Numbered from the stretch's first letter, positions 6,481-32,915 are shown. The stretch is DNA of 64,000 bases from Gammaproteobacteria bacterium (GCA_038922795.1 JBCKWI010000001.1:24033-88032); one strand, 5' to 3'. Made by a program: numbers and translations. The notes: a model not told the origin generated them from the letters alone.

Positions 6481-6790
6481 ATATGGTATTTGGTATGTAG
6501 TAGATGGTATATGGGGACTAATCACTATTTACCGTCGTGTATAGTTTATTCAACATTTTAGCAACTGATTCAATTTCCAATAATTGTTGATTATCAATTT
6601 GTAAATAATCCAAATCTCCGCAGAGAATAAAATAATATCTCAGTTCCTCTGTATGCCGATATACGTTCAGGACTATATTATGTGCCAGCCTCCAGACTTC
6701 CAGTTGCTTAAAATTATTTATCGTCATCTGTGACTCCTCTCCTTATTAATCTCATATCCCAACTACCATATCCCAACTACCACCTACTAC
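6481..6790. repeat. Palindromic GGTAG/CTACC element, copy 1, carrying a four-helix-bundle gene remnant
   Basis: Left arm 6481..6516: atatggtatttggtatgtagtagatggtatatgggga. Right arm 6752..6790: tcatatcccaactaccatatcccaactaccacctactac. The arms are inverted relative to each other and bracket ORF 6518..6727. Confidence 0.7.
6518..6727 (-). pseudogene. Four-helix-bundle (23S rRNA intervening-sequence type) protein gene, internally deleted
   Basis: 69 aa. The N-terminus FKQLEVWRLAHNIVLNVY and the C-terminal EELRYYFILCGDLDYL...VAKMLNKL match the ends of the ~120-aa family. The central FP..E....Q.RRAA.SI..NIAEG segment is missing. Confidence 0.55.
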
Positions 6791-7885
6791 AGTCCGCTTT
6801 TAAGACTTGCCTCAATAAACCGGTCCAAATCACCATCCAGTACCGCCTGGGTATTCCCCGTTTCAACTCCGGTACGCAGGTCCTTAATGCGGGATTGATC
6901 CAGCACGTATGATCTAATCTGGCTGCCCCAGCCGATATCAGCCTTGGCATCTTCCTGCGCCTGTTTCGCTGCATTGCGTTTCTGCATTTCAAGCTCATAC
7001 AGCTTGGCACGCAACTGGCTCATGGCCTGGTCCTTGTTTTTGTGTTGCGAGCGCTGGTTCTGGCATTGTACAACGATACCAGACGGGTTATGAGTAATAC
7101 GCACTGCTGAATCGGTCTTGTTGACGTGCTGCCCGCCTGCCCCGCTGGATCGGTAGGTATCAATGCGCAGATCAGCCGGGTTAATCTCGATATCAATCGT
7201 CTCATCGACTTCCGGTGATACAAACACCGAGGCAAACGAAGTATGCCGGCGGTTGTTGGAATCAAAAGGGGATTTACGCACGAGTCGGTGCACGCCCGTT
7301 TCAGTGCGCAGCCAACCGTAGGCATAATCCCCTGCATATTTAATCGTCGCACTCTTGATCCCGGCAACTTCACCGGGGGATATTTCGATCAATTCCGTAT
7401 TGAAACCATGCTGTTCCCCCCAACGCAGATACATGCGCAATAACATCTCGGCCCAGTCCTGGGCTTCAGTCCCGCCGGAACCGGATTGAATATCGAGATA
7501 GGCATTATTGGCATCCATCTCACCGGAAAACATGCGGCGGAACTCCAGTTCCTCGACTTTCTTTTCATATTTGTCAACGTCCTTCGCTACCGCCTGAACT
7601 GTGTCAGCATCCTTTTCCTCGGCGGCAATGGACAATAATTCAGAGGCATCGCGTAATCCCTCTTCTATTTCACGGATATAATCAACGATGAGTTCCAGAG
7701 ACGCGCGTTCTTTGCCCAGTGACTGGGCACGCTCGGGATTGTCCCATATCTTTGGTACAGCCAGTTCGTGCTCGACTTCTACCAGCCGCTCAGCCTTGTT
7801 GTCATAGTCAAAGATACCCCCTAAGGGAAGTCACTCGTTCCCGCAGATCCTTGATCTGGGCTAAAACCGGGTTGATCTCAAGCAT
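6787..7885 (-). CDS. prfB: Peptide chain release factor 2, requires programmed +1 frameshift at 7810
   Basis: Frame 0 runs 7885..7811 ([25 protein letters not shown]) and ends at an in-frame TGA. The +1 frame runs 7809..6787 (341 codons including stop, continuous with track ORF 6787..7635). It contains the SPF and GGQ motifs (SGAGGQHVN). Confidence 0.95.
7807..7822 (-). promoter_or_regulatory. prfB +1 frameshift site: AGGGGG TAT CTT TGA C
   Basis: Minus strand reads CTT AGG GGG TAT CTT TGA CTA TGA C. This is the canonical internal SD-like AGGGGG, the slippery CUU and the UGA-C context. Confidence 0.9.
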
Positions 7886-7960
7886 GTCAGGTATTTTTCT
7901 CTAATGAATTAGTTCGGAGCGCACATTGTAATCGGAAGGAGAAAATCCGCTAAGCTTTTT

Positions 7961-8020
7961 GTAGGAGCGGGCCATGCCCGCGAAAGATGTTTTTTCATCG
8001 CACGCAAGGCGTGCTCCTAC
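7961..8020. repeat. REP-type hairpin, family GTAGGAGC...GCTCCTAC, copy 1
   Basis: gtaggagcgggccatgcccgcgaaa...cgcacgcaaggcgtgctcctac. The terminal arms are inverted. Confidence 0.8.
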
Positions 8021-8062
8021 CACAAATCGTTGATCCATATCTATTGGGGCAGGCCACAACCC

Positions 8063-8117
8063 GTAGGAGCGTGCCGTGCACGCGAAAATGCATATCGCAT
8101 GCAGGGCATGCTCCTAC
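8063..8117. repeat. REP-type hairpin, family GTAGGAGC...GCTCCTAC, copy 2 (overlaps recJ stop)
   Basis: gtaggagcgtgccgtgcacgcgaaaatgcatatcgcatgcagggcatgctcctac. Confidence 0.8.
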
Positions 8118-9841
8118 AAAGGCATTATATAGTTAATAAGCAGTTGTAGCTGCCGACGGCCAGCAAATTCATTGATGTCCAGTTTATAGACGGTCTGCAC
8201 TCGCCCGGTCGATTCAGGCCAGTCTTCATCAGTGATATTAAAGGCGATGGCGTCAATGGCCCTGTTATTACCCGGATGCCGTAACTGTAATTTGAGATGC
8301 CTTTCACCAACGACACGGGTATTGATGACTTCAAACTCACCGTCAAACACAGGCTCGGGGAAACCCTGCCCCCAGGGTCCTGACGATATAATTTTTTCCG
8401 CCAGTTCAAAGCTCAATTCATTAACGGATAATTCACCATCGGAGAACAGCACCCCGTCCAGTTCATCGCCGGATAAAAACCTGCCCGTCACCTGATCAAA
8501 CAAAGAACTGAATTGATCAAAATCAGCCTCCCGGATGGTCAGGCCAGCAGCCATCGCATGACCGCCAAATTTACTGATGATGCCGGGATGCTGGCTGGCA
8601 ATCGTATCCAGCACATCACGGATATGCACACTGCTGATGGAACGTGCCGATCCCTTGATATAACCTTCCTTGTCTTTTGCAAAGACAATGGCCGGCCGGT
8701 TTATCTGGTCCTTGATTCTCCCGGCCAGAATTCCGACGACTCCCTGATGCCAGTTCTCATTGAACAGGCAGAGACCGTTCGGTAATGACGCCTGGTCATT
8801 CAAATCCAGATCGGCAATATCGATCATGGCCTGCGCCTGCATCTCTGCCTGTATCTCGCGCCGTTCCTTGTTGAGTTGTTCAAGCTTGAGGGCCATGTCC
8901 TTTGCCAACTGTTGATCATCGGTCAACAAACATTCAATACCGAGCGACATGTCGGTCAGTCTGCCAGCGGCATTCAGACGTGGCGCCACAGCGAAAGATA
9001 AATCCTGTGCAGTTATATTTTTTAAAGAACGATTGGCCGCCTTCAGTAATTCCCTGATCCCCGCGCAACACTTGCCGGAACGGATACGCGCAAGACCCTG
9101 TGCAACCAGGATGCGGTTATTGTGATCGAGTGGCACTACATCCGCGACTGTCCCCAGTGCCACCAGGTCCAATAATTCGGCCAGATTGGGTTCAGGGATG
9201 TTATTCACGGCAAACCAGTTCTGTTCACGCAGATGACTGCGCAGGGCGATCAGGATATAAAACATCACACCCACCCCGGCCAGGTTCTTGCTGGGGAAAC
9301 TGTCACCGGGCTGATTGGGATTGACTATCGCGTTGGCATCCGGGAGAGTCGAACCGGGCAAATGATGATCGGTAATTAATACCTCAATGTTTCTGGAACG
9401 TGCCAGTGCCACACCTTCTATACTGGAAATTCCATTATCTACGGTAATGATGACATCAGGTTTCAAATCAGACGCAACTTCAACGATTTCGGGACTCAAA
9501 CCATAACCAAATTCAAACCGGTTCGGGACAACATACTGGACATCACTAAATCCCATTAACTTCAGGCCGCGCAGGGCGAGTGCACAACTCGTTGCGCCAT
9601 CAGCATCAAAATCCGCAACAATTAGTAATTTTTTATTTTCTTTGAACGCATTGGCAAGCAGTGTCACAGCCTGATCCATGCCAAGCAGTGCTGCAAATGG
9701 CAATAACCCCCGCAACGAATAATCCAGTTCCGCCGCCGATTGTATGTTGCGTGCGGCATAGATGCGCCGTAATACAGGATGGATATCCCCGGAAAAACTG
9801 ACATCATTACGGAAGGTGCGGCGGGTGATATTAATTGGCAT
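8114..9841 (-). CDS. recJ: Single-stranded-DNA-specific exonuclease RecJ
   Basis: 575 aa. DHH/DHHA1 motifs are present (ADFDADGATS, ITDHH, GGHAMAAG). Confidence 0.95.
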   Translation of the reverse strand: MPINITRRTFRNDVSFSGDIHPVLRRIYAARNIQSAAELDYSLRGLLPFAALLGMDQAVTLLANAFKENKKLLIVADFDADGATSCALALRGLKLMGFSDVQYVVPNRFEFGYGLSPEIVEVASDLKPDVIITVDNGISSIEGVALARSRNIEVLITDHHLPGSTLPDANAIVNPNQPGDSFPSKNLAGVGVMFYILIALRSHLREQNWFAVNNIPEPNLAELLDLVALGTVADVVPLDHNNRILVAQGLARIRSGKCCAGIRELLKAANRSLKNITAQDLSFAVAPRLNAAGRLTDMSLGIECLLTDDQQLAKDMALKLEQLNKERREIQAEMQAQAMIDIADLDLNDQASLPNGLCLFNENWHQGVVGILAGRIKDQINRPAIVFAKDKEGYIKGSARSISSVHIRDVLDTIASQHPGIISKFGGHAMAAGLTIREADFDQFSSLFDQVTGRFLSGDELDGVLFSDGELSVNELSFELAEKIISSGPWGQGFPEPVFDGEFEVINTRVVGERHLKLQLRHPGNNRAIDAIAFNITDEDWPESTGRVQTVYKLDINEFAGRRQLQLLINYIMPL

Positions 9842-9858
9842 CAGAATAAGTAGTTAGT

Positions 9859-9935
9859 GTCATTTCGACCAACGGGTAGATCCCTCACTGCGTTCGGGAC
9901 GCCTACGGCGGATTTCTCGCTATGCTCGAAATGAC
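9859..9935. repeat. REP-type hairpin, family GTCATTTCGA...TCGAAATGAC, copy 1
   Basis: gtcatttcgaccaacggg...ggatttctcgctatgctcgaaatgac. Confidence 0.8.
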
Positions 9936-9952
9936 ATAAGAGTTTGTATTTA

Positions 9953-10975
9953 TCAATTTGCATAAACAGCAATTGATTTGGGCCGTTTCCAGAATTGATA
10001 AAGAGAAGACTTGCGGATTGTAAACTGCTGGTATTCAGTTATCAGCGTCAATTCTTCGATCTCTTTGGATTTTATGCAATCAATAGCCTCTGAAAACCAG
10101 AATTCCTCCAGATAGGCAATAAAATCCTGCCAGCCTTTCAGATCATGATACTGGCTGTGACGCAAACCAAAGGACATGACGGCCAATACATCATCTTCAT
10201 CCTCTGCAAGTTCAAGTGCATCATCAATTGAGTCTGGTAACTCCGCGCAGGGAATATTGGCCAGGACAGAAAAACCTTTTGCAATCTCCTCATCGGTAAA
10301 TACCCTGGTCCAGGGACATTTTACAAGGATGGGCAGTTCACCACAGCCCCAGAACCAGAGGCTGTTGACAGCACGCTCACCCCGCCGCTCACGTTCTGTA
10401 TTCACCTGACTTCCATGCAAAGTCATTTGTATTTCATTCAATAACTGTGCCCACGCCTGCTGGTCTTTTCCTGCCGGCATATAATAATGTATGTCCCTGC
10501 CGGCAACTTCATGAACCGGTATTGTTTTAATGTCAGGCGCAACATCCATGGTGATATACCAGCGATTAGTGGTAGGCGCTTCCAGTATCATGCCCCGTTC
10601 TGCCAGGATGTCTTTTACATCTGCCGCCAGCACCAGGGCATCATGCTGATCCAGCGTAAAGGTTGATTCATCCATCAGAACCAATCCCTGCCGGCCGGCA
10701 ACCAGATGTACCGGATCAGCCCGCATCCAGGGCCCCGCCAGTGAATGATCATCATCCACCAGTTTTGTTATCGCAGCGATAGGGAAATCTTTCTCTGCAT
10801 GGCGTTCAAGTTTGAACAACATGCATAATGCATCACTGAATCCAAACGGGATGAGTTGTTCACGGCTGGCACAGGCCAGCAGTTTTTCCAGTGATGGAAC
10901 TGGCGGGATATCCTGTTCAGATAAATCCCCGGCGGGTGTGAGCAGACCGGGGATGAACAGGGTTAAACTATGCAT
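9953..10975 (-). CDS. Conserved hypothetical protein (tentatively RpfE-type / phosphoglycerate-mutase-like family)
   Basis: Track ORF 9953..11017. The start is moved to ATG 10975 (MHSLTLFIPGLL) because the longer N-terminus is encoded by repeat element copy 2. The family call rests only on remembered similarity and on its position next to recJ and prfB-lysS. Confidence 0.45.
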   Translation of the reverse strand: MHSLTLFIPGLLTPAGDLSEQDIPPVPSLEKLLACASREQLIPFGFSDALCMLFKLERHAEKDFPIAAITKLVDDDHSLAGPWMRADPVHLVAGRQGLVLMDESTFTLDQHDALVLAADVKDILAERGMILEAPTTNRWYITMDVAPDIKTIPVHEVAGRDIHYYMPAGKDQQAWAQLLNEIQMTLHGSQVNTERERRGERAVNSLWFWGCGELPILVKCPWTRVFTDEEIAKGFSVLANIPCAELPDSIDDALELAEDEDDVLAVMSFGLRHSQYHDLKGWQDFIAYLEEFWFSEAIDCIKSKEIEELTLITEYQQFTIRKSSLYQFWKRPKSIAVYAN

Positions 10976-11000
10976 CGGAAATACAGCATGTAAAAAATTG

Positions 11001-11081
11001 CATATGGCAGGTAGCATATGGGGATAGTCGAATTAAAATTATTAATATTCCCATATTCTACATTCCATCTACCAGATACTA
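11001..11081. repeat. Palindromic GGTAG/CTACC element, copy 2
   Basis: gcatatggcaggtagcatatgggga - 25 nt AT-rich spacer - cccatattctacattccatctaccagatacta. Confidence 0.7.
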
Positions 11082-12218
11082 TAGATTATCCAATATCGCC
11101 TTCTTTACCTGGTCCAGATTTGCCTCGATCTTGACTACCGGTGCGGTGCTTTGCGCAATCGCAGTGTCCGGGTCTTTCAGGCCATGTCCGGTCAGGGTAC
11201 AAACCACACAACTGTTCTCCGCTATCTTTCCGGATTTAATATCACGCATGGCGCCTGCCAGTGATGTAGCCGATGCCGGTTCACAGAATACACCTTCTTT
11301 TTCAGCAAGCAGTTTCTGCGCGGCAAGGATCTCGTCATCAGTACATTCATCAAACCAGCCGCCGGATTCCTTGTTGACTATCCAGGCCTGGTCCCAGGAC
11401 TGCGGATGACCGATACGGATCGCGGTTGCAACGGTCTCCGGATCATCCACCATTTTGCCACGGAGGAATGGTGCGGAACCACTGGCCTGATAACCGGCCA
11501 TCTTGGGCCGTTGACCGGCACTCGGGCCGCCGGCAAACCGGCAATGCCCTTTGCAGAAAGCACAGGCATCCGTAACGTGATCGCCATCCTTGCAGGCATA
11601 TTCACTGTAACCGATCCAGTGTGCCGTGATGTTGCCTGCATTACCTACAGGCAGGCAATGATAATCCGGTGCGCGCCCGAGCTCTTCAACGATCTCGAAC
11701 GCCGCAGTCTTCTGTCCCTGCAAACGATAAGGATTGATAGAGTTAACGATAGTGACGGGCGCAGTCTGTGCGACTTCTTTTACCAGCCGCATGCCATCAT
11801 CAAAATTGCCCTTGATCTGGATCACAACCGCACCTTCCATCATGGCCTGTGCGAGTTTGCCCTGGGCGATCTTCCCATCCGGTATCAACACAAACGCAGT
11901 GATTCCTGCACGCGCCGCATAAGCCGCGGCCGAGGCTGATGTATTACCAGTCGATGCGCAGATGATGGCCTTTGAACCTTCTTCCATGGCCTTGGTGACT
12001 GCCATGGTCATGCCACGATCTTTAAACGATCCGGTAGGATTCAGTCCTTCATATTTCACATAGATATCGACATCCTTACCGGTCAGTTCCGGAATATTAT
12101 GCAGCCGGATCAGTGGTGTATTCCCTTCACCCAGGCTGATGATGCGGGTGTCATCATGCACCGGCAGACGGTCACGGTAACGTTCGATGAGACCGGTATA
12201 TCTTTGTCTGAAGCTCAT
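11079..12218 (-). CDS. thrC: Threonine synthase
   Basis: Track ORF 11079..12341. The start is placed at ATG 12218 ([20 protein letters not shown]), which excludes element copy 3. The PLP motif [10 protein letters not shown] is present. Confidence 0.9.
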
Positions 12219-12260
12219 TCTGTTTCTATATTTTTCTGAAGTTACTTTACTTAACTGGAC

Positions 12261-12355
12261 AGTATTTAGTAGATGGTATATGGGGAACATCCTGCCCACC
12301 TGCCACATTCTACCTACCAAATTCCATCCACCATATTCCAACTACCACCTACCAG
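12261..12355. repeat. Palindromic GGTAG/CTACC element, copy 3
   Basis: agtatttagtagatggtatatgggga - acatcctg - cccacctgccacattctacctaccaaattccatccaccatattccaactaccacctaccag. Confidence 0.7.
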
Positions 12356-12358
12356 CGG

Positions 12359-13672
12359 TCACTCCAATGTTTCCAACCGTATCCGCATGACCTTGTCATA
12401 AATGCTATCGAGGGCTTCGATCTCTTTAATGGCCTTGTTCATGAATTTTTCCTGCACACGCTGTGTCAACATGATCACTGGCACATGGCTCGCGCCTTCG
12501 GCAGGTTCTTTCTGCAAGATGGCTTCAATGCTGATCCCGGCATCACCCAGTATCCGTGTCACATCAGCAAGCACACCCGGCCGATCGATCGCTTGCATGC
12601 GCAGATAATAGGCAGTCTCTACTTCATCCATGGGTAGTATCGACACGTCAGACAATTTATTTGGCTGGAAGGCCAGGTGCGGGACACGATTATTCGGATC
12701 AGTTGTCAGGACACGCGCAACATCCACTACATCTGCAATCACAGCGGAAGCCGTAGGTTCGGATCCGGCCCCGGCACCATAATAAAGAGTCGGGCCAACA
12801 GCATCACCTTGCACCACCACGGCATTCATTACACCGTTCACATTCGCAATCAGACGGCGCTCGGGTATGAGTGTGGGATGCACACGTAGTTCTATACCTT
12901 TATCTGTTTTGCGTGCGATACCAAGGTGTTTAATCCGGTAACCCAGTTCGTCTGCATAGACTACATCCTGCTGTTCGATCTTTGTGATCCCTTCTGTGTA
13001 GGTTTTATCAAACTGCAACGGGATACCAAATGCAATGGAACCGAGAATGGTCAATTTGTGGGCGGCATCAATGCCTTCCACATCGAACGTTGGATCGGCC
13101 TCGGCATAACCCAGCGCCTGGGCTTCTTTGAGCACATCATCAAACGTCCTGCCCTTTTCGCGCATCTCGGTCAGGATAAAATTTCCTGTGCCGTTGATGA
13201 TACCAGCCACCCACAGGATCTGATTGGCGGCAAGTCCTTCGCGGATTGCCTTGATGATCGGGATGCCACCGGCAACGGCTGCTTCAAATGCAACCATCAC
13301 ACCTTTTTTCTGGGCCGCGGCAAATATCTCGTTGCCGTGTTTTGCGATGAGCGCCTTGTTCGCGGTGACCACATGCTTGCCATTCTCGATGGCCTTGAGC
13401 ACCAGTTCCCGTGCCGGTGAATAGCCGCCTATCAATTCGATAACGATATCAACATCGGGATTATTCACGACTTCAAAGGCATCATCCGTAATCTTGTCAA
13501 TTTTATCCAGACCGTGAATCTTCTCAGCGTTATATTCCTTTGCCGCAGCGTGACAGATCCGGATCTCACGTCCGGCCCGGCGTGCGATTTCTTCAGCATT
13601 ACGGTGCAGCACATTGATCGTACCACTGCCTACCGTACCCATGCCTAACAGACCCACTTTGACTGGTTTCAT
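12359..13672 (-). CDS. hom: Homoserine dehydrogenase
   Basis: 437 aa. It has an N-terminal NAD fold (VGLLGMGTVGSG), a catalytic domain and a C-terminal ACT-like domain. Its start overlaps the upstream stop (TAATG). Confidence 0.95.
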   Translation of the reverse strand: MKPVKVGLLGMGTVGSGTINVLHRNAEEIARRAGREIRICHAAAKEYNAEKIHGLDKIDKITDDAFEVVNNPDVDIVIELIGGYSPARELVLKAIENGKHVVTANKALIAKHGNEIFAAAQKKGVMVAFEAAVAGGIPIIKAIREGLAANQILWVAGIINGTGNFILTEMREKGRTFDDVLKEAQALGYAEADPTFDVEGIDAAHKLTILGSIAFGIPLQFDKTYTEGITKIEQQDVVYADELGYRIKHLGIARKTDKGIELRVHPTLIPERRLIANVNGVMNAVVVQGDAVGPTLYYGAGAGSEPTASAVIADVVDVARVLTTDPNNRVPHLAFQPNKLSDVSILPMDEVETAYYLRMQAIDRPGVLADVTRILGDAGISIEAILQKEPAEGASHVPVIMLTQRVQEKFMNKAIKEIEALDSIYDKVMRIRLETLE

Positions 13673-14880
13673 TATGCTTCCTTCTTTACATCAAACGCCG
13701 GAGTTTCTTCACGAAACATTGAACGGATCCCACGAACCGCTTGCCGGGTACGATGTTCATTTTCAATGAGTGCAAAACGCACATGCTTGTCGCCATATTC
13801 ACCAAAACCGATCCCCGGTGATACGGCCACCTTGGCTTCACTTAATACCTTCTTGGAAAACTCGATCGAACCCATGGCCTGGAATTGTTCGGGGATGGGG
13901 GCCCAGACAAACATTGTGCCCTTGGGTTTTTCCACAACCCAACCGGCGGAGTTCAGTCCTTCACATAACACATCACGGCGGCGCCGGTACATATCACGGA
14001 TATCCGCCACACATTGTTGATCACCTTCCAGTGCGGTAATCGCCGCTACCTGCACCGGGGTAAACAACCCGTAATCCAGATAGGATTTTAATCGGGTCAG
14101 TGCTTTGACCAGTGTCTGGTTGCCAACCATGAAGCCCACACGCCAGCCGGGCATGTTGTAACTCTTGGACAGGGTAAAGAATTCAACCGCAACATCCTTG
14201 GCGCCCGGTACCTGCAAAATAGAAGGTGCGGTGTAACCATCAAATACGATATCGGCATAGGCAAGATCCTGAACCACCCAGATGTCATGTTCACGCGCAA
14301 TCTCGATGACCTTTTCGAAAAACGATAATTCAACACATTCCGTAGTCGGATTGCCGGGGAAATTCAACAATAGTAATTTTGGTTTGGGCCACGAATCGCG
14401 TATGGCCTTTTCCAGCTCCGCAAAAAAATCAAAGCCCGGCCCTATCGGTACATGCCGGACATCGGCCCCGGCGATTACAAATCCGAACGGATGAATGGGA
14501 TAGGATGGATTCGGCACCAGTACCGCATCACCACGATCGACTACGGCCATGGCGAGATGCGCCAGACCTTCCTTGGAACCGATAGTGACGATGGCCTCGG
14601 ATTCAGGATCGAGATCCACGTCATAGCGTTTTTTATACCAGTTGCAGATGGCCCGGCGCAGTCTCGGGATACCGCGTGACCAGGAATAACGATGCGTATC
14701 TTCGCGGCTGGCCGCCTCGATCATTTTGTCGACGATATGCTGTGGCGGCGGCTGGTCCGGATTCCCCATGCCGAAGTCGATGATATCCTCGCCACGATGG
14801 CGTGCCTCCATTTTCAGGTCATTGACGATGGCGAACACATACGGCGGCAGCCGGTTAATTCTTGGAAATTCGTTGTTCAA
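13672..14880 (-). CDS. Class I/II PLP-dependent aminotransferase (AlaC-like)
   Basis: Track ORF 13672..15048 is over-extended into element copy 4. A probable TTG start at 14880 gives (M)[15 protein letters not shown], the usual family N-terminus. The PLP-lysine motif [12 protein letters not shown] is present. Confidence 0.85.
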
Positions 14881-14940
14881 GTCAGTAAACCTGTAAATTA
14901 ATGTAAACCTCAAAAAGGCGAATGAGTATAAGGCATTTAA

Positions 14941-15145
14941 CTGGAAGGTGGAATTTGGTAGTTGGGAGCCGGAATTTGGTATGTAGTAGATGGCATATGG
15001 GGGACACAAACCTTTCGCCAACTCTGATTCCCATATTCTACCTACCATCTACCGTATTCCGTATTCCGTATTCCGTATTCCATATCCCACCTACCATCTA
15101 CCGTATTCCGTATCCTACCTACTACCTACCATATTCCAAATTCCT
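14941..15145. repeat. Palindromic GGTAG/CTACC element, copy 4 (largest; contains a (CCGTATT)4 tract at 15052..15079)
   Basis: Left arm: ctggaaggtggaatttggtagttgggagccggaatttggtatgtagtagatggcatatggggg. A 26-nt spacer follows. The right arm is cccatattctacctaccatctaccgtattccgtattccg...ctacctactacctaccatattcc. Confidence 0.75.
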
Positions 15146-15171
15146 AAAGCTTTTCCTTTATACTGTGCCCC

Positions 15172-15996
15172 ATGACTAGAATTGCTGCCATCCAGATGGT
15201 CTCAACCGATAATGTTGAGACCAACTTAAACTCTGCCGCTGATCTTATCCGGCAGGGCGTGGCTGATCACGCTGAATTTCTGGTTTTACCGGAAAATTTC
15301 CCGCTGATGGGACAGCACGAACAGGACAAGCTGGCCGTGAAGGAACCTTTTGGCCATGGTCCTATCCAGGATTTCCTGAGTAAACAGGCTCAGCAGCACC
15401 AGATTTGGCTGATAGGCGGTACCATCCCGATTCAGGCCAGTGTACCGGATAAAATCCGTGCTGCCTGCCTCCTCTATAATCCGCAGGGAGAGTGCATTGC
15501 TCGCTACGACAAGATCCACCTGTTTGATGTCAGTGTTAATGGTGGCAATGAAACCTATAACGAATCAAGTACCATAGAGGCCGGTAACGGGATTACTGTC
15601 GCAAAAACCCCGTTCGGTAATATCGGCATGTCGGTCTGTTATGACCTGCGCTTCCCGGAAATATACCGGAACATGCTTAACCAGGATGTTAATATCATTA
15701 CTGTCCCCTCCGCCTTTACCGCTACCACCGGCAAGGCGCACTGGGAGACATTGTTGCGTGCCCGGGCCGTGGAGAACTTAAGTTATGTCATCGCGCCTAA
15801 TCAGGGAGGCCGGCACATAAATAATAAAGAGACCTGGGGCCACAGCATGGTCATAAATCCCTGGGGCGATATCCTCGCTGTGGTTGAGCATGGAGAAGGC
15901 ATAGCCTGTGCGGATATCGATCTCGAACAACTGAAGACATTGCGGAATAATTTCCCGGCACTGAAACACCGGACATTGGACTATCACAAGACATGA
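15172..15996 (+). CDS. Carbon-nitrogen hydrolase family protein (Nit-like)
   Basis: 274 aa. The E-K-C triad contexts are VLPENF, HLFD and [10 protein letters not shown]. It overlaps the tldD start by 4 nt. Confidence 0.85.
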
Positions 15997-17435
15997 GTAA
16001 AACACTGGACATCGCCAAACATCAATTGCTGGACAGCGGCGGACTGCAGGTCAATGACATTCAGAAAACACTGGACCAATTGATGCAGCATGATATTGAT
16101 ACGGCTGATCTGTATTTTGAATCCTCACATGCGGAATCCTGGGTGCTGGAAGACGGGATCGTCAAGGAAGGATCGCACAGCATTGATCAGGGTGTCGGCG
16201 TACGCGCCATCAGTGGCGACAAAACCGGCTTCGCCTATTCCGATGAAATTGTCTTACCGGCATTGGCCAGTGCGGCAGAAGCAGCGCGTGCGATTGCCAG
16301 AAGTGGTGGAGCAGGCAAATTGCAGGCCTGGAAACAACAGAACACCCCCGCACTCTATACTGCTGCCGATCCGCTCGTCTCAATCGGTGCGGAGGAGAAA
16401 ATCAATCTATTGAAACGCATTGATGCAGAAGCCCGGAAAAAAGACCCGCGTGTCAAACAGGTGCTGGTCGGGATGAATGCCATGCATACAACCATTCTGG
16501 TGGCTGCCAATGACGGTACGTTTGCCGCGGACATACGTCCACTCGTGCGTTTGAATATTAATGTTATCGTGGAACAGAACGGCCGCATCGAAAAAGGCGG
16601 CGCCGGCGGCGGTGGCCGCTTAGGATATGAATATTTTCTGAATGACAATTTATTTACCACCTATATTGATGAAGCTGTTGCACAGGCACTGACAAATCTT
16701 GAAGCCGTCAATGCGCCGGCAGGTGCAATGACCGTGGTACTCGGTCCGGGCTGGCCCGGCATTTTATTACATGAAGCCATCGGCCATGGTCTTGAAGGTG
16801 ATTTTAACCGTAAGAAAACATCTGCATTCTCCGGCCGCATCGGCGAACGCGTCGCCACACCGGAAGTGACCGTTGTGGATGATGGCACCATAGTCAACCG
16901 GCGCGGCTCACTCAATATCGATGATGAAGGTACGCCGACGCAATGCACGACACTGATCGAACGCGGCATCCTGCGTGGTTACCTGCAAGACAAACACAAT
17001 GCAAAACTCATGGGCATGCAGCCGACCGGCAATGGCCGGCGCGAATCCTACGCTCACCTCACCATGCCGCGCATGACCAACACCTACATGCTCGGCGGAT
17101 CACACACACCGGAAGAGATCATCGCTTCGGTAAGCAAGGGCATCTATGCACAACAGTTTGGTGGCGGGCAAGTAGATATCACCAACGGCAAGTTCGTATT
17201 CAGTGCCAGCCAGGCGTATCTCATCGAAAATGGAAAGATCACCAGGCCCATCAAGGGCGCGACCATTATCGGCAACGGCCCCGATGTGTTGACACGGGTC
17301 TCCATGGTTGGCAATGACATGCAAATGGATTCCGGTATCGGTACCTGTGGCAAGGACGGCCAGTCCGTGCCAGTCGGTGTCGGCCAGCCAACCATCCGTA
17401 TCGATAATCTGACCGTGGGTGGAACAGCTGCCTGA
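15993..17435 (+). CDS. tldD: Metalloprotease TldD
   Basis: 480 aa. It has the [11 protein letters not shown] zinc motif and TldD/PmbA-family sequence throughout. Confidence 0.95.
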
Positions 17436-22484: not shown

Positions 22485-22490
22485 TAAACA

Positions 22491-26927: not shown

Positions 26928-26954
26928 GTCATACTGGTGTATACCAGTATCCAG
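26928..26954. repeat. REP-type hairpin, family GTCATWCYGG...ATCCAG, short copy
   Basis: gtcatactggtgtataccagtatccag. Confidence 0.7.
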
Positions 26955-27263
26955 TCAATATAAAGTCCGCTTTCAGGCGGCACATTTATTTAACTGAATG
27001 ACGAATAAACTCTGAGTTTTTCTGTACTGTACTAAAGGAATAGTGATGAACACAAAGAATTTCACACACCTCGACTATAAGGATGTAGTCGGTACGATTA
27101 CAAGGAAGTAATCGGTAGAGTCGAGTCCGGAACGGAGACCGAGAGCGACGCACGACTCCAGGGATGGAGGAGGTAGAATCGCGTCGGGAACAGCGATCGA
27201 GGATGCCAAAGCCGAGGGTTCATAGAGCTTTTAGGGTGTCTACTTATAGTTAGGTTTCAATTA

Positions 27264-27764
27264 ATGATGATTTATCTTGTAGGAACTAATCATGAACTTC
27301 AGCATACAGCTAAGCCAAAGAGAGCTGAAATTGGAAGAGTAAAAGAAGCAAGAAGTAAATTTAAAGTATATCTCAAAGAACTAGCTCTAAAATTTAAAGC
27401 GACTCTTCTCGCAGAAGAATTTGCTGAAGAAGTTCTTGGGTACCTTGATGCTAGCTCAAATATAAAATCTATTGCTGACGAATTAGGAATAGAACATAGA
27501 TTTTGTGAGCCAGACAGCACAACCAGAACAAAACTTGGTGTTCCTGCTACTGGCACCGGAGATTTACCTGCTCATGAAAGACTTAGGTTGCATGCCATTC
27601 GAGAAAAATATTGGCTAGAAACCATTAAAGATAAGGCAAATGATATTATAATTTTTATTTGCGGTTCTAATCATGTGAAAAGTTTTGAAAGTCTTCTACA
27701 AAAAAATGGATTTAACGTAATCATATTAGAATCATATTGGGGTAATGAAATATATGAAACCTAA
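27264..27764 (+). CDS. Hypothetical cassette protein (weak TraB/GumN-like GTxH / GSNH pattern), low-GC
   Basis: 166 aa. It has YLVGTNHELQ and IFICGSNHV. Its stop TAA lies inside ACCTAAC. Confidence 0.5.
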   Translation: MMIYLVGTNHELQHTAKPKRAEIGRVKEARSKFKVYLKELALKFKATLLAEEFAEEVLGYLDASSNIKSIADELGIEHRFCEPDSTTRTKLGVPATGTGDLPAHERLRLHAIREKYWLETIKDKANDIIIFICGSNHVKSFESLLQKNGFNVIILESYWGNEIYET

Positions 27765-27821
27765 CCAACGGCTCAAGCACGACGCGCAAAAGGCGCGCGC
27801 GTCTTATCCGAGCCGTTATGT
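27759..27821 (+). other. attC-like recombination site 1
   Basis: ACCTAAC-CAACGGCTC...GACGCGC-aaaag-gcGCGCGTC...GAGCCGTTA-TGT. It is an imperfect 60-nt hairpin bounded by AAC and GTT triplets (R-prime GTTATGT). Confidence 0.45.
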
Positions 27822-27979
27822 GTCAAAAAGTCTGAGCCGCTGAAATGATCACCCTCAATGGCGGACGCGGTGAAATAGCGCGCCATTTCCTGTCGGGTGC
27901 GCGGAGTCGGGCCGCTCAAGCTTTTCGTTGGGCGACTTAGAGCTTGCCTTGGTCATACCTTTGGTGATACCTTGGAGCA

Positions 27980-28216
27980 ATGAAAGTCGCAATCTCCCTG
28001 CCCGATCCCGTTTTCAAGGCCGCTGAGGTTCTAGCTCACAAGCTCAAGAAGTCCCGCAGCCAGCTCTATGCGGAGGCCATCGCTGAGTACGTCGGCACGC
28101 GCGGCGCAAAGGCCCTCACGGCGAAGCTGAATTCCGTTTATGCCAATGAGTCCTCGGAAGTTGATCCAGCTTTGAAGTATGCCGAGCTTGAGTCGCTGAG
28201 CCGTGAAGCGTGGTGA
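27980..28216 (+). CDS. Ribbon-helix-helix (CopG/MazE-like) antitoxin
   Basis: 78 aa. MKVAISLPDPVFKAAEVLAHKLKKSRSQLYAEAIAEYV is a typical RHH. It overlaps the toxin gene by 14 nt. Confidence 0.75.
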   Translation: MKVAISLPDPVFKAAEVLAHKLKKSRSQLYAEAIAEYVGTRGAKALTAKLNSVYANESSEVDPALKYAELESLSREAW

Positions 28217-28541
28217 GGTCTGGTGGGCCTCACTTTCCGAGCCGGCCGGTTCGGGGCCTGGGTTCCGGCGCCCTGTCCTGCTGATTCAATCCAACCCGTT
28301 CAATGACAGCAGAATCTCAACCGTAGTCATTGCTGCCATCACGTCAAACTTGGCGCTGGCTGAGGCACCCGGCAATGTTCGCATCGGAAAGGCAGTGTCT
28401 GGCCTAGCGAAACCATCCGTCGTGAATGTGTCTCAGATACTCACTATAGATCGTTCGTATCTTACGCAGCGCGTTCGTGCAGTCCCGGCAGAGACAATGC
28501 GGCGAGTGGACAGCGGACTGCGTTTGGTTCTTGGGCTGTGA
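28203..28541 (+). CDS. PemK/MazF family type II toxin (mRNA interferase)
   Basis: 112 aa with a GTG start. It has KRGEVWWASL....G.....RPVLLIQSN and VVIAAITSN. Confidence 0.8.
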   Translation: MKRGEVWWASLSEPAGSGPGFRRPVLLIQSNPFNDSRISTVVIAAITSNLALAEAPGNVRIGKAVSGLAKPSVVNVSQILTIDRSYLTQRVRAVPAETMRRVDSGLRLVLGL

Positions 28542-28545
28542 AGTC

Positions 28546-28717
28546 GCCCAACAACAGGTTCCAGCCGACGTCCCTGCCTGGAATTAAAGGGCCGGCGTGA
28601 TTTAAAATCAACCGGTCAAAATGAAGTACATGGATGTTCAAATGTCGCGGGCGCAGGAAGCGCATGAGCGGCTAAATCACTCCGGCCCTTTCGTGTTTCT
28701 TGAATGCCCTGTTAATA
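28546..28717 (+). other. Long attC-like imperfect hairpin (GCCCAAC ... GTTAATA) with a 19-bp internal inverted repeat
   Basis: AAAGGGCCGGCGTGATTTA (28586..28604) versus TAAATCACTCCGGCCCTTT (28673..28691) matches 18/19. The outer CAACAGG pairs with CCTGTTA. At 172 nt it is longer than classical attC. Confidence 0.35.
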
Positions 28718-28764
28718 GGTGCTATATATAGGTCTATTAATTGCAGCATATAGAGGCCAATCAC

Positions 28765-29034
28765 ATGCAAACGAAGTTCTCCGAAGATGTAATTCCACTT
28801 TCAGATCTCAAAGTTAATCCTGGAAAAATAGTTAACCGTGCAAAAGATTCCCACCGTCCTATTTTGCTTACTAGCCGAGGTAGGGGCGTCGCTGTCATGC
28901 AGGGATTAGATGAATATGAAAAAAATGAAGAAGAGAGAAAGTTCATAAAGGCAATCGCCCAAGGTCTTATGGAAATTAAAGAAGGGAAAGAAATGGAACT
29001 GAAAGAGGTGAAAAAGAAACTGGGTATCATCTAA
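28765..29034 (+). CDS. Phd/YefM family antitoxin
   Basis: The start is placed at ATG 28765. MQTKFSEDVIPLSDLKVNPGKIVNRAKDSHRPILLTSRGRGVAVMQGLDEYE is a typical Phd/YefM N-domain. Confidence 0.8.
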   Translation: MQTKFSEDVIPLSDLKVNPGKIVNRAKDSHRPILLTSRGRGVAVMQGLDEYEKNEEERKFIKAIAQGLMEIKEGKEMELKEVKKKLGII

Positions 29035-29334
29035 GTGAAAATATCCATTTCCAACTCGGCTCTGAATGATCTTGAGAGTATTCAGGAATATTATAAGGAC
29101 GAGGGCGTCCCCCACGCAGGTAAGCAGTTCTTAGTGTCAATTATTGATCACATTGAGACATTGCGTAATAACCCTGATATCGGAAGAATCGTTCCTGAAT
29201 TTAGTGAGGTCAAAATCCGTGAGCTTATACATTCGCCATTCCGCGTTGTTTACTTGAGGGAACAAAGATCAATTCATGTTGTTAGAGTGTGGCGAAGTGA
29301 AAGGTTACTAGTATTACCTGAGAATGAAACATAA
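29035..29334 (+). CDS. RelE/ParE family toxin
   Basis: 99 aa. The GTG start directly abuts the antitoxin stop. It has IQEYYKDEGVPHAGKQFLVSIIDHIETLRNNPDIGR and FRVVYLREQRSIHVVRVWRSER. Its stop TAA lies inside ACATAAC. Confidence 0.8.
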   Translation: MKISISNSALNDLESIQEYYKDEGVPHAGKQFLVSIIDHIETLRNNPDIGRIVPEFSEVKIRELIHSPFRVVYLREQRSIHVVRVWRSERLLVLPENET

Positions 29335-29403
29335 CAAGGCAAATCAACTCGGACAAATTTTCCGCTGGTGCTCAAAATCCGCCAGTTATTTGCGACGTTA
29401 GGC
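29329..29403 (+). other. attC-like recombination site (ACATAAC ... GTTAGGC), 75 nt
   Basis: ATAAC-aag-GCAAAT-c-AACT ... AGTT-ATTTGC-gac-GTTAG. The arms pair with one unpaired base, and the inner CTGG pairs with CCAG. The canonical GTTAGGC core is at the 3-prime end. Confidence 0.5.
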
Positions 29404-29607
29404 CTAAGCATATAACTGACTCTGCAATTCTCCGAATCGTTTGTACCACGTAAAAATCGGGGTCAGGTCTTGAAATTTGAATATGAGATGCACGAAAAAG
29501 TAACGGTAGAAGAAAATGCATTGACCATGCATATTTAAGATTCAACACTGGCCCTTTACATTCGAAATATCAACATCTGCATTGAAAACAACAGATTCAA
29601 TATATTA

Positions 29608-30312
29608 ATGAGACTTAACAAATTCATTTCTGAAACCGGGATCTGTTCGCGCCGCGAGGCCGATGCCTGGGTTGAACAAGGCCGGGTAAAAATCAATGGC
29701 AAAATTGCTGAACTGGGTACTCAGGTCAGCGAAGAGGATGAGGTGCGAGTTAACGGCCGGATTATTGGCAGCCGCAAAAAGAAACACGTTTATATTGCGC
29801 TGAACAAACCGGCGGGCATCACCTGTACCACCGAGCGGCATATCCCCGGCAATATCATTGATTTCATCAAACATCCCGAACGCATCTTCCCGGTCGGGCG
29901 GCTGGACAAGGAATCCGAAGGCCTGATCCTGCTGACCAGCAACGGGGATATCGTCAACGAGATCCTGCGATCCGAAAACAATCACGAGAAAGAATATATC
30001 GTCACGGTGGACCGGCCGATAACAGACGAATTTCTCACCGGCATGGGCCGTAGTGTGCGGCTACCTGAATTAGATGTCACCACCAAACGCTGCAAGGTCA
30101 GCCGTATAAATCCAAAGACCTTCCAGATTATCCTGACCCAGGGGTTGAACCGGCAGATCCGCCGCATGTGTGCAGTTTTTGGCTACAAGGTGATTCGCCT
30201 GCAACGTATACGCATTATTAATGTCAAACTGGATAGATTAAAATCCGGGTGTTGGCGTGACCTGAAACCTGATGAATTGAAAGGCTTGCTGCCACAGCGT
30301 ATGAAGTGGTAA
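29608..30312 (+). CDS. rluF: 23S rRNA pseudouridine synthase RluF
   Basis: 234 aa. It has an S4 domain ([31 protein letters not shown]) and the RsuA/RluF catalytic motif [14 protein letters not shown]. Confidence 0.85.
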
Positions 30313-30342
30313 TAATCTTGAGACTAAACGAAAATAATACTG

Positions 30343-30840
30343 GTGATTCAAATGCATAAAATATTAACCCGGCTTATAACACTGACCATAATGTTATTTA
30401 CGGGACAACTACTTGCGGATAATACCGGGTGGGACGTGGCAAAAGAGAGTTACGCCGGCGCAATGGAGATCACGGTTTATAGTGATCCGGATTGCGGGTG
30501 TTGCAGTAAATGGATCGCACATCTGGAACAACATGAATTCAACGTGACTGATATTAAAACCAGTGATCTTGACAGGATAAAAAACAAATACAACGTACCG
30601 CATGGACTGGCATCCTGTCATACCGCGATTATTGATGGCTATGTGATTGAAGGCCATGTACCTGCGGATGATATCAAACGGCTCCTGAACACACGGCCTG
30701 ATATCAGGGGTTTATCCGTGCCGCAGATGCCGGTGGGCACGCCCGGCATGGAAATGGGTGACAGAAAAGACCCGTTCAGAGTCATCAGTTTTAAGGATGA
30801 TGGGGAATTTGGTATTTTTCAGGAATACACAGACTACTGA
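30343..30840 (+). CDS. DUF411 (CopG-like) periplasmic metal-binding protein
   Basis: 165 aa with a signal peptide. It has the CGCC motif (DPDCGCCSKW), SCHTAIIDGYVIEGHVP and PVGTPGMEMG. The start could instead be ATG 30352. Confidence 0.75.
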   Translation: MIQMHKILTRLITLTIMLFTGQLLADNTGWDVAKESYAGAMEITVYSDPDCGCCSKWIAHLEQHEFNVTDIKTSDLDRIKNKYNVPHGLASCHTAIIDGYVIEGHVPADDIKRLLNTRPDIRGLSVPQMPVGTPGMEMGDRKDPFRVISFKDDGEFGIFQEYTDY

Positions 30841-30897
30841 ATCCTGCTGCACGTATACATACTCCTGCGTTCATGCAGCCGTCCGTGGTTTCAATAA

Positions 30898-31491
30898 TCA
30901 GGCAATCAGTTTTTCAAATTCCGCGAAACTCTGTACATGCCCATCCACTGGAATATCCATACCAAGCTGCCGTCCGATCTGGGTAATTGAAAAGATACCC
31001 CTGACGAAATAACCCTCCCCTTTTTCCTGAGCCTCGAGCACGATGGCATGCTGACAGCCTGCATTTCGCAGTTGCACGATCACATCGCGCACGCTGGCAT
31101 GTTCGATATTACTGAAATTGAAGGGATTCAACTGCTCGCGCGGGGTCATGATCTGGCGGACCAGAATTTCCCCCCGTTTTACCCGGTCCTGTGTCATGAT
31201 CCTGAGCGGTTTCTCACCCGTGATATCGCGTGCAGTGATCAATCCTGCCAGCATTCCGGATTGATCTATCACTACCAGCATCCTGATGCCGGCATGCTTC
31301 ATGATCTCCATGGCAAATTCGATGGAACTGTCCGGGTTGACAGTGATTGCCTTCACCTGTTGAAGATCGGTCATTGCCCTGATGGCCGGATCATCCAGTT
31401 TAAGCAGCAGCGGTTTGCCCGATGACAGAAGATAAACCGGCGTATTCGCATCCAGGTTGAATGCTTCAAGCTTGTGGGCGTAGGTGGTCAT
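30898..31491 (-). CDS. CBS domain pair protein
   Basis: 197 aa with two CBS-like repeats (AMEIMKHAGIRMLVVIDQSGMLAGLITARDI and VIVQLRNAGCQHAIVLE...GIFSITQI). Confidence 0.75.
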   Translation of the reverse strand: MTTYAHKLEAFNLDANTPVYLLSSGKPLLLKLDDPAIRAMTDLQQVKAITVNPDSSIEFAMEIMKHAGIRMLVVIDQSGMLAGLITARDITGEKPLRIMTQDRVKRGEILVRQIMTPREQLNPFNFSNIEHASVRDVIVQLRNAGCQHAIVLEAQEKGEGYFVRGIFSITQIGRQLGMDIPVDGHVQSFAEFEKLIA

Positions 31492-31587
31492 GACCTGCCT
31501 CCTTCATTGACGGGTTCGCCGGTAAAATCTGTTCTTATTCAAATTATAGCATCTGGTTTTAACCCTGATGTGAAACAGGCCAGCGAT

Positions 31588-32742
31588 TTATTCCCGGAGC
31601 CAGATCCACGCAATGAGCCATGCCGCACCTGCGGTAACTGCCGCGCCGATAAAACATAGTAAGGCGCCGGTCCCATTCCAGATATAACCACTGACCAGAC
31701 TGCCAACCGCCATACCGGCGCCAAAACTGACACTGCTGTAAAGTGCCTGACCCCGGCCCTGTAAACGGCCACGGAAAAATTTATGGATATATAAAATAGC
31801 TACGGTGTGATAAACACCAAATGTCGCCGCATGTAACAACTGCGCGAAAATCAGGATCACTACGCTTTCTACAAAATACCCGATCAGCAACCAGCGCATC
31901 ATTGCAATGAACAGGCTTGCAAGCAACAATAACCGCAAACTGCTGGCGCGGATCAATCGCTGCATGAACATGAACACTATTACTTCCGCAATAACACCCA
32001 GCGCCCACATCTGCCCGATAAAACTGCTGGAATAGCCGTTATCTTCGAGATAGATGGAATAAAACGTGTAATACGTACCGTGACTGGCCAGCATGAGAAA
32101 ACATACCGCGAACAATGCAATGACGTGTGGCCTGAATAATATGGATTTCAAACTTTCATGGGCAGACTCATGCTGTTGGACTTTCTGTTCCGGTATGCCA
32201 AGACTCATTAACCAGACAACGATCATCGAGACCAAAACAAAGACCGGGACATTTTTGATATCGATAGTTTCAAAGACGATACCCAGCAGCCACACCGTGA
32301 CAATAAAACCGACCGAACCCCAGACCCGGATATTGGTGTAATCATGGGTTGACTCACCGAGATGGGCCAGCGTTGCCGCCTCGATCTGCGGCAGTGATGC
32401 ACTCCAGAACAATGAAAACAGGAACAGTATGATCGCGAGAGCCCAGAAATCCTGTACGAACAATGCAGCACTGAAAGTTATAGCGGAGAATAACGAGGCG
32501 ATCTGAATGACCCGCATGCGCCGGCCGGTGTGATCCACCGCCCATCCCCAGAAATAAGTAATAAATACTTTGGTAAAGACAACAATGGCAGACAGAATCC
32601 CGATCTGTTCGGCATTCATGCCGATGGCTTTCAGATACAACGACCAGTACGGCAAAAAGATGCCGACGGTAACAAAGAACAGAAAATAAAATCCGGACAG
32701 GCGCCAGTAAGGAACGGTATTAACGTGGGTATGGAAAGTCAT
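31588..32742 (-). CDS. MFS transporter (HcaT/PPP-like, MFS_1_like)
   Basis: 384 aa with about 12 TM helices. The N-terminus is YWRLSGFYFLFFVTVGIFLPYWSLYLKAIGM. Confidence 0.8.
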   Translation of the reverse strand: MTFHTHVNTVPYWRLSGFYFLFFVTVGIFLPYWSLYLKAIGMNAEQIGILSAIVVFTKVFITYFWGWAVDHTGRRMRVIQIASLFSAITFSAALFVQDFWALAIILFLFSLFWSASLPQIEAATLAHLGESTHDYTNIRVWGSVGFIVTVWLLGIVFETIDIKNVPVFVLVSMIVVWLMSLGIPEQKVQQHESAHESLKSILFRPHVIALFAVCFLMLASHGTYYTFYSIYLEDNGYSSSFIGQMWALGVIAEVIVFMFMQRLIRASSLRLLLLASLFIAMMRWLLIGYFVESVVILIFAQLLHAATFGVYHTVAILYIHKFFRGRLQGRGQALYSSVSFGAGMAVGSLVSGYIWNGTGALLCFIGAAVTAGAAWLIAWIWLRE

Positions 32743-32786
32743 TCGTGATTATTGAACAATATCATCAGTCTTGAGGGAAATACTTA

Positions 32787-32915
32787 CGGGTATATGGGAT
32801 ATGGTAGTTTGTATATGGGGCATCCAACCCATATGCTACCTACCACCTACCACCTACCATCTACCATCTACCATCTACCACCTACCACCTACCAAATACT
32901 AATAGTTACCTACTC
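32787..32915. repeat. Palindromic GGTAG/CTACC element, copy 5 (right arm is a (TACCAYC)8 heptamer array at 32841..32896)
   Basis: gggtatatgggatatggtagtttgtatatgggg - catccaa - cccatatgctacctaccacctaccacctaccatctaccatctaccatctaccacctaccacctaccaaatac. Confidence 0.8.

Follow-up and report, generated by a model that had tools for sequence, protein, structure and literature searches.

Cyanobacteria carry short tandemly repeated repetitive (STRR) heptanucleotides, reportedly described by Mazel in 1990, which are of the same kind of repeat as the hairpins considered here. The latter, termed the GGTAG family, were noticed in a 64,000-nucleotide stretch of gammaproteobacterial DNA (the window; GCA_038922795.1 JBCKWI010000001.1:24033-88032), where arrays of a 7-nt unit face each other between housekeeping genes. 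Heptanucleotide repeats have been an over-represented yet unexplained class of bacterial simple sequence repeat (SSR) since the report of STRR (1990), through surveys of long simple sequence repeats (LSSRs; 2007) and work on Xanthomonas (2015). In Xanthomonas, each genome has 70-75 pairs of GGGAATC heptamer arrays in convergent (inverted) orientation (Rehm et al. 2015, PMC4692102). The arrays are intergenic in 89-93% of cases, lie near the upstream open reading frame (ORF), and are found mostly between co-directional and rarely between divergent genes (PMC4692102). The same study notes that heptameric repeats had not, by then, been treated in detail in the literature (PMC4692102).

Comparable repeats have been described in other lineages. 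Geobacter metallireducens carries palindromic sites of five MTYCTGA heptamers (PMC2700814), and TAACTGA arrays are found in marine Beggiatoaceae and in cyanobacteria (PMC4679880). Heptamers also occur in the intervening sequence (IVS) of the Coxiella burnetii 23S rRNA, which combines a decaying S23p ORF, tandem GACAGAT heptamers, a terminal stem and cleavage by RNase III (PMC4990558). The initial annotation of the window, made by reading the nucleotides without database searches, did not recognise the GGTAG hairpins as a named element. This statement requires qualification, given that elements of this kind have been published for both Xanthomonas (PMC4692102) and Geobacter (PMC2700814).

We propose with moderate confidence that the GGTAG hairpins are ORF-less, lineage-specific members of the known heptamer inverted-repeat class, and that they are probably derivatives of IVS-type cassettes. 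The family shares with described heptamer inverted pairs a 7-nt period, convergent arms able to form a stem-loop, an intergenic position near the end of the upstream ORF, and mostly co-directional neighbours. It is one lineage-specific dialect among several in its genus. Its arms gain and lose whole units, the elements are placed at stop codons, their sites turn over rapidly, and their architecture is tied to genes of the PF05635 family.

A family of heptamer hairpins

The window corresponds to G000:C1:24033-88032 in a gammaproteobacterial metagenome-assembled genome (MAG), G000, whose assembly comprises 1.92 Mb in 127 contigs with 72.6% completeness and 48% GC. The product of its hom gene is closest (83%) to gammaproteobacterial sulfur-oxidiser MAGs and shows 78-81% identity to Thiohalobacter, Sedimenticola and Thiodiazotropha. 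A cyanobacterial origin, considered at first because the repeats resemble STRR, was rejected on this basis. Each GGTAG element is an imperfect palindrome in which a 5ʹ arm of in-register GGWAKDT units is followed by a loop of unrelated sequence and a complementary 3ʹ arm. All five copies located by the initial annotation are present in the sequence, and their parts are as follows (z denotes folding stability relative to shuffled sequences, as described below).

6481..6515: copy 1, left G-rich heptamer arm, which ends in GGTATATGGGG and directly abuts the lysS start codon
6518..6727, minus strand: copy 1 cargo, the 69-amino-acid ORF P0001, a probable internally deleted 23S-rRNA-IVS / four-helix-bundle remnant
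6751..6790: copy 1, right C-rich arm, CATATCCCAACTACCATATCCCAACTACCACCTAC, which runs into the prfB stop codon
11001..11075: copy 2, between the thrC stop and the gene that follows; arms 11001-11023 (left) and 11050-11075 (right) around a 26-nt loop at 11024-11049; z -3.3
12261..12355: copy 3, between the stop of hom and the start of thrC; arms 12261-12285 (left) and 12295-12355 (right, long and degenerate) around a 9-nt loop; lopsided; z -1.3
14943..15144: copy 4, between divergent genes for an alanine transaminase and a nit-type amidase; arms 14943-15003 (left) and 15030-15144 (right) around a 26-nt loop at 15004-15029; z -2.9
32788..32915: copy 5, between the aroC stop and the start of a gene for a major facilitator superfamily (MFS) transporter; arms 32788-32820 (left, 4 units) and 32828-32893 (right) around a 7-nt loop at 32821-32827; z -2.4

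The right arm of copy 4 includes a CGTATTC x4 sub-array. That of copy 5 consists of ~9 tandem CTACCAC/CTACCAT units followed by a degenerate tail to position 32915, and Tandem Repeats Finder assigns this copy a period of 7, with 8.1 copies and a 96% match.

The 5-base words GGTAG and CTACC had been taken as the building blocks of these copies, whereas the real block is the 7-nt unit repeated in register. A count of 152 in-phase units yields the consensus G(87%) G(98%) T/A/C A(96%) G/T A/G/T T(88%). The commonest forms are GGTAGAT, GGTAGGT, GGTAGTT, GGTATAT and GGAATAT, with GGCATAT and GGAATAC as further left-arm units and the complements in right arms; the family also includes GGGAATC, the Xanthomonas unit, among its variants. 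At all loci the left arm is the G-rich one and the right arm the complementary C-rich one, and the innermost units are arranged as ATATGGGG - loop - CCCCATAT. A right arm beginning with CCCATAT, as described initially, is found in copies 2, 4 and 5, whereas that of copy 3 starts with CCCACCTGCC, and copy 1 has CATATCCCAACTACC. The measured loops of 7, 9, 26, 26 and ~240 nt are close to the spacers of 7, 8, 25, 26 and 235 nt reported at first.

An in-phase array scan, in which an arm was defined as at least three heptamer units in register, detected 28 arms in G000 versus 0, 1 and 0 in three second-order Markov genomes. The arms group into ~19-20 loci across the assembly, and the family therefore extends well beyond the five copies initially described. 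Eight loci reside on contig C1 (three just upstream of the window and five within it), and others are on C2, C15, C16, C17, C34, C36, C38, C40, C57, C72 and C81, with one more cut by the end of C61. The presence of 8 of 19 loci on a contig that forms 5% of the assembly has a probability of ~2e-6. Recurrence beyond chance, which the initial annotation wished to see confirmed genome-wide, is a property of these arrays and not of the short core: ATATGGGG alone occurs 53 times versus ~58 expected, and TATATGGGG is likewise at chance frequency in the genome. It is therefore the array context that carries the significance. According to Tandem Repeats Finder, which also detects period-7 arrays at the copies, 7 is the commonest repeat period of the genome (99 arrays). 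An inverted partner was found for 27 of 81 arrays versus 12 in a reversed-array control, figures on which we do not rely because a reversed unit resembles a rotation of the unit and the control was thus poorly chosen.

Hairpin formation was evaluated by comparing the minimum free energy of RNA folding at 18 loci with that of dinucleotide shuffles. The resulting z-scores range from -0.6 to -10.8 with a median of ~-3, and most loci are more stable than their shuffles; copy 3 (z -1.3) and the C34 locus (z -0.6) fold weakly. Because the arrays exceed their controls and most loci fold better than shuffled sequences, the family stands on both counts that the initial annotation had singled out as decisive. 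Rfam covariance models gave 0 matches at the gathering score in the whole window. Among the ~19 ORF-less copies the loops range from 2 to 32 nt. Unit order, arm length and loop differ at every locus, arms can be lopsided (4 units versus 9 in copy 5), and there is neither a colinear sequence nor fixed ends.

Turnover among sister species

Two genomes of the same genus, both syntenic with G000, were available for comparison, namely G001 (~90% nucleotide identity in flanking genes) and G002 (~75-80%). The prfB|lysS junction, which harbours copy 1, measures ~305 nt in G000 versus 3 nt in G001. In G002 it contains an extracytoplasmic function (ECF) sigma / anti-sigma pair on the opposite strand and then a GTGATTG-unit palindrome beside the prfB stop codon (L098 3078-4160, G002:C19). 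The aceF|lpd, C40 and C81 junctions are essentially empty in G001, and that of C16 is empty in G002. Most other orthologous junctions carry a heptamer palindrome of another unit, with GGTATCT, TCGTAAT, GTGATTG, TCAGAAT and ACAAGTT represented in G001 and GTGATTG and CGTGAAG in G002. The hom|thrC junction occupied by copy 3, for example, contains a GTGATTG-unit palindrome in G001. Between sister species, one dialect takes the place of another at orthologous junctions. The description of a dispersed hairpin family is upheld, and copies are gained and lost.

The only orthologous GGTAG copy in G001, at the C36 locus, is 93% identical and one 7-nt unit shorter, and a further minimal copy in that genome reads AGCAGGTGGAATATGGG-tca-CCCCATATACCATCTCCTGC. 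An exact two-unit GGTAG pattern has 17 hits in G000, and when 400 other Gammaproteobacteria were searched, five had any hit (10 in one genome, 1-2 in each of four). The genome with 10 hits (G425, 0.4 Mb, 25% GC) has long mosaic direct tracts that lack the ATATGGGG centre, and no other genome of the 400 has comparable arrays. These tracts (L192, L199) mix the units CTACCAA, TGATGTT, TAGCTGT, GGTAGGT and GGTTAGA. On the basis of the sister-genome and 400-genome comparisons, therefore, the GGTAG family is older than the split between G000 and G001, has expanded in the G000 lineage, and turns over fast.

The genus constitutes a compact natural experiment, in which three genomes (~75-90% nucleotide identity) share operon junctions that hold hairpins of different units or are empty. 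This makes it possible to date and compare the arrival of hairpins, their replacement and their growth by whole units. Two other observations concern repeats of different types in these genomes. At G000:C81:5100-5125, CGTGAAG units, which dominate the sampled G002 junctions, lie inside the 3ʹ end of the gene upstream of the GGTAG hairpin; this stretch reads gcgtgaagcgtgaagagtga and ends in a stop codon. A ~60-nt repeat between two genes at window positions 9878-9939 has 13 other places in G001 and 6 in G002, and represents a different and more widely shared family.

Variation by whole units and the lopsided lengths of the arms could also be produced if the arrays arose in place by polymerase slippage and the hairpin pairs were then selected as 3ʹ-end mRNA stabilisers or attenuators. 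Under this alternative there would be no mobile element and no tie to four-helix-bundle genes, and the ORF of copy 1 would be a coincidental insertion in the loop. Of the SSR classes in bacteria, heptamers are the most liable to expand, according to Mrazek 2007 as reported in two later papers (PMC4679880, PMC4692102), the loops are unrelated between copies, and a site immediately after stop codons suits an RNA role at the 3ʹ end. However, independent slippage would not be expected to give ~20 loci a common set of units and a common ATATGGGG/CCCCATAT centre, nor does it account for the same few dialects recurring across genomes and framing PF05635 genes far above chance. Sites that are empty in a sister species of ~90% identity imply that arrival is abrupt, and no copy in window positions 6000-16000 is followed by a T-run. 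We therefore regard in-place slippage as unlikely, though not negligible.

Presence or absence between relatives, together with inverted-repeat ends, small size and intergenic dispersal, also brings to mind a classical miniature inverted-repeat transposable element (MITE), in other words a deletion derivative of an insertion sequence (IS) with terminal inverted repeats and target-site duplications, mobilised by a transposase encoded elsewhere. Other true MITEs do exist in this genome. The GGTAG copies, however, have no fixed termini, and their arm length, unit order and loops all vary. No clear target-site duplication was seen when the filled and empty junctions at prfB|lysS, C40, C81 and C16 were compared by eye, a comparison whose precision is limited by flank divergence, and the sole ORF inside a copy does not encode a transposase. 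A MITE origin is accordingly an exceedingly improbable explanation. Below the other alternatives we rank a speculative addition of G-rich units to both 3ʹ ends of a break, a process that would account for the G-richness of the 5ʹ arm on both strands in almost every dialect.

A decayed gene in copy 1 and its framed relatives

Copy 1 is the only GGTAG copy with a PF05635-like gene in its loop, and this gene is a remnant. P0001 matches PF05635 with an E value of 2.6e-4 in two stretches, the best of which places residues 27-61 on profile positions 70-106, and its score of 21.6 bits compares with a cut-off of 33.8. PRK12275 subfamilies are matched by its N-terminal part, and TIGR02436 (‘four helix bundle protein’) by its C-terminal part. 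When hhalign was used with a profile of 14 relatives, residues 1-29 aligned to positions 1-29 with a probability of 89% (E 2e-6). Helix 1 and the C-terminal helix are retained, ~40 residues are missing, and the protein is too decayed to be placed in a PF05635 clade (best sampled relative, E 6e-6). Since the family is matched only at the two ends, we infer with good support that P0001 is an internally deleted four-helix-bundle gene of the 23S-rRNA-IVS type, and neither a transposase nor another known kind of mobility enzyme. This is not a formal family call because the scores fall below the curated cut-offs.

Two more PF05635 genes were found in G000, each between heptamer arrays in inverted orientation. 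On C10 the array AGAATAC AGAATTC AGGAGTC AGAAGAC lies before the gene and its mirror ATTCTGA ATTCTGA CTCCTGA after it (TCAGAAT-type), whereas the gene on C37 (AAGTNAA-type) lies between AAGTCCA AAGTGGA AAGTTAA AAGTAAA and CTTTAAT CTTTTCA CTTTTCA CTTTACA and carries an in-frame stop. The C10 gene is split by a MITE of ~170 nt (G000:C10:15440-15610) with ctagaacctatctcaaaatta as its terminal inverted repeats. TCAGAAT- and AAGTNAA-type units also form ORF-less palindromes elsewhere in G000, and hence each of three dialects (GGTAG, TCAGAAT and AAGTNAA) comprises one defective gene-bearing copy and several empty ones. Intact PF05635 genes are present in G002, one framed by CGTGAAG and one by GATGAGT units.

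This association extends to a wider sample of 53 PF05635 genes, 26 from 40 genomes of the same family and 27 from 150 genomes of the class. Within the same family, at least 23 of the 26 inspected genes lie between inverted arrays of heptamers, which are built from many different units. Two of the framed genes reside inside helix 45 of the 23S rRNA, and ~10 PF05635 genes occupy a conserved locus beside a tRNA gene, where the unit varies by genus and the arms stay complementary. This locus (…KRPQYSKR gene | PF05635 | tRNA) has AAAGTGA-type arms in some genera and ACAAGCT-type arms in others. Framing is likewise seen for ~20 of the 27 genes from the class, one of which is inside 23S rRNA, giving three framed genes within helix 45 over both samples. 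A terminal stem of the IVS type that contains tandem heptamers is thus present in copy 1, at both other PF05635 genes of G000, and at most of the 53 relatives. A full-text search that combined PF05635-family names with heptamer terms returned no family name in the top-ranked papers, in a query where the name was not obligatory and few subscription journals were covered.

The remnant in copy 1 and the framing of most sampled PF05635 genes identify a candidate protein partner for the heptamer arrays, and provide a tie to the equally unexplained 23S IVS. A partner of another type was suggested by the initial annotation, which considered the hairpins to be MITE-like or related to repetitive extragenic palindromic (REP) sequences, and which proposed a search for a REP-associated tyrosine transposase (RAYT). 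Four RAYT-like Y1 transposase genes (PF01797) are indeed present in the genome:

G000:C13:38189-38521: RAYT-like Y1 transposase gene with its own REP type
G000:C21:12819-13148: RAYT-like Y1 transposase gene with its own REP type
G000:C98:3310-3636: RAYT-like Y1 transposase gene with its own REP type
G000:C7:46213-46437: RAYT-like Y1 transposase gene with its own REP type

The gene on C98 is surrounded by GTAGGAGCGTGCCTTGCATGCGAC arrays. A RAYT (TnpA-REP) might mobilise the hairpins in trans as REPs or REPINs by recognising the GTAG within GGTAG units, which is the tag of one REP superfamily (PMC3733652). Within an assembly that is 72.6% complete, however, none of the four genes is flanked by GGTAG arms, and each has its own REPs (such as GGGGCCAGG-type and GTAGGAGCGTGCC-type). 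In addition, the copies are variable arrays with unrelated loops instead of colinear REPs of 20-40 bp, and sister genomes exhibit the same architecture with units that lack GTAG. Mobilisation by a RAYT is therefore very improbable. The GGTAG family is, as originally stated, distinct from the REP families of this genome, and the lack of fixed ends, colinearity and clear target-site duplications speaks against a classical MITE or a REP-like nature.

Genomic position and gene expression

The elements are intergenic and adjacent to housekeeping genes, in agreement with the first description. Genes that flank the window copies are lysS, prfB, thrC, hom, the alanine transaminase gene, the gene for the nit-type amidase, the MFS transporter gene and aroC, and copies outside the window occupy aceE|aceF|lpd, guaA|tadA and comparable junctions. 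Neighbouring genes are co-directional at 12 loci, convergent at 4 and divergent at 1 (copy 4 alone). At 17 of 18 loci, as read by eye, a distance of 0-17 nt separates the outer end of an arm from a stop codon, and most copies lie inside operons. Several arms run straight into a start codon without a visible Shine-Dalgarno sequence, namely those of lysS, tadA and the gene after lpd.

This last feature matches an observation made by MacGregor (PMC4679880) and favours the view, proposed for the TAACTGA repeats of Beggiatoaceae, that the arrays are binding sites by which a sequence-specific post-transcriptional regulator controls a regulon; the tadA start abuts an arm in three congeners. The flanking genes, however, have no common function, and sister species have different units at a shared junction, a change that a conserved regulator site would not tolerate. 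We consider a regulon of this kind very improbable. At the guaA|tadA junction (G000:C15:16698-16815 and its orthologues L114 in G001 and L131 in G002), the tadA start abuts a C/A-rich palindrome arm in all three congeners, with units that differ by congener (GGTAGAT, GGTATCT and GTGATTG) and no visible Shine-Dalgarno sequence.

Rho-independent terminators were also considered as a candidate and rejected. No copy was called as such in window positions 6000-16000, where the right arms are followed by A/C-rich sequence and not by a T-run. Annotation is affected too, since ORFs are falsely extended by the arrays and the stop or start codons of housekeeping genes such as prfB, lysS, lpd and tadA can be provided or displaced by them. 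A separate peculiarity of the prfB ORF (window 6787-7635), which covers only profile positions 75-353, is ordinary and is expected from the usual programmed +1 frameshift of release factor 2.

A possible origin from IVS-type cassettes

The ORF-less hairpins may be non-autonomous or decayed relatives of IVS-type cassettes, in which case copy 1 would represent an intermediate comparable to the decaying S23p ORF of Coxiella (PMC4990558). Changes in arm length could occur via replication slippage, as has been proposed for heptamer SSRs in general (PMC4692102, PMC4679880). When transcribed, an element is predicted to fold as an RNA stem that brings the upstream stop codon and the downstream start codon together, and this juxtaposition would explain why insertions are tolerated at tightly coupled junctions such as prfB|lysS. 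By analogy with IVS stems (PMC4990558), the RNA stem is a likely substrate for RNase III. The elements might then persist mainly as tolerated selfish or structural DNA and not as regulators.

Several observations weigh against a derivation of this kind. An IVS-type remnant is present in 1 of ~20 GGTAG copies, and its family assignment involves weak scores under the Pfam gathering cut-off. The initial annotation had suggested that short copies arose from the ORF-carrying copy by loss of the loop. This route is no more than plausible, since the loops of short copies do not convincingly resemble the interior sequence of copy 1 (p <= 0.035 for 3 of 14). Folding of sense versus antisense strands, which differ in their G-U pairs, reveals no consistent bias, the sense strand being more stable in just 7 of 13 loci, and so lends no support to selection at the RNA level. 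Finally, all three PF05635 genes in the assembled 72% of the genome are defective, and consequently no candidate active partner was found in that portion.

A derivation of the GGTAG hairpins from IVS-type cassettes can be extended, tentatively, to a broader model that we consider possible without favouring it. Heptamer hairpins and IVS-type genes might together form one class of element, in which every dialect would possess one master copy with a gene for a pentameric protein that recognises the arrays of that dialect, and ORF-less copies (19 of 20 in the GGTAG dialect) would be dependants. The 23S rRNA IVS would then be one insertion site of this class.

Comparison with known systems

The GGTAG family most closely resembles the GGGAATC repeats of Xanthomonas, with which it shares a G-rich 7-nt unit, opposite-strand pairs able to form stem-loops, intergenic sites near the end of the upstream ORF, a bias towards co-directional neighbours, and variation in length and sequence between close relatives. 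In contrast to Xanthomonas, the GGTAG family has a conserved ATATGGGG/CCCCATAT centre, its units are not G4-forming, and at one and the same junction sister species differ in the unit itself and not only in how often it is repeated. A four-helix-bundle remnant is also carried by one GGTAG copy, a link that is absent from PMC4692102.

The STRR, TAACTGA and Geobacter repeats are similar to the GGTAG family in that all are dispersed intergenic heptamer arrays with several unit families per genome and a patchy phylogenetic distribution, although the likeness is one of architecture only and does not involve sequence homology. STRR and TAACTGA repeats differ in that they are chiefly reported as direct arrays. 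In Geobacter the sites are palindromes of ~5 units per arm, and their unit ATTCTGA is another dialect of G000.

REP and REPIN sequences with their RAYTs (PMC3116915, PMC3733652) are likewise short intergenic palindromes in dozens of copies, with a possible pairing of autonomous and non-autonomous elements. Unlike these, GGTAG copies have no RAYT association, are not colinear, and have arms that are tandem arrays. The gene associated with the GGTAG family, unlike a RAYT, encodes a four-helix-bundle protein without known catalytic activity.

That gene relates the family instead to the Coxiella IVS. In copy 1, as in the Coxiella IVS, a long stem with heptamers encloses a decaying ORF, which in copy 1 is a probable four-helix-bundle remnant, and relatives have similar cassettes within helix 45 of 23S rRNA. 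The two systems differ in that GGTAG copies are located between protein-coding genes and not in rRNA, and in that ~19 of 20 copies carry no ORF.

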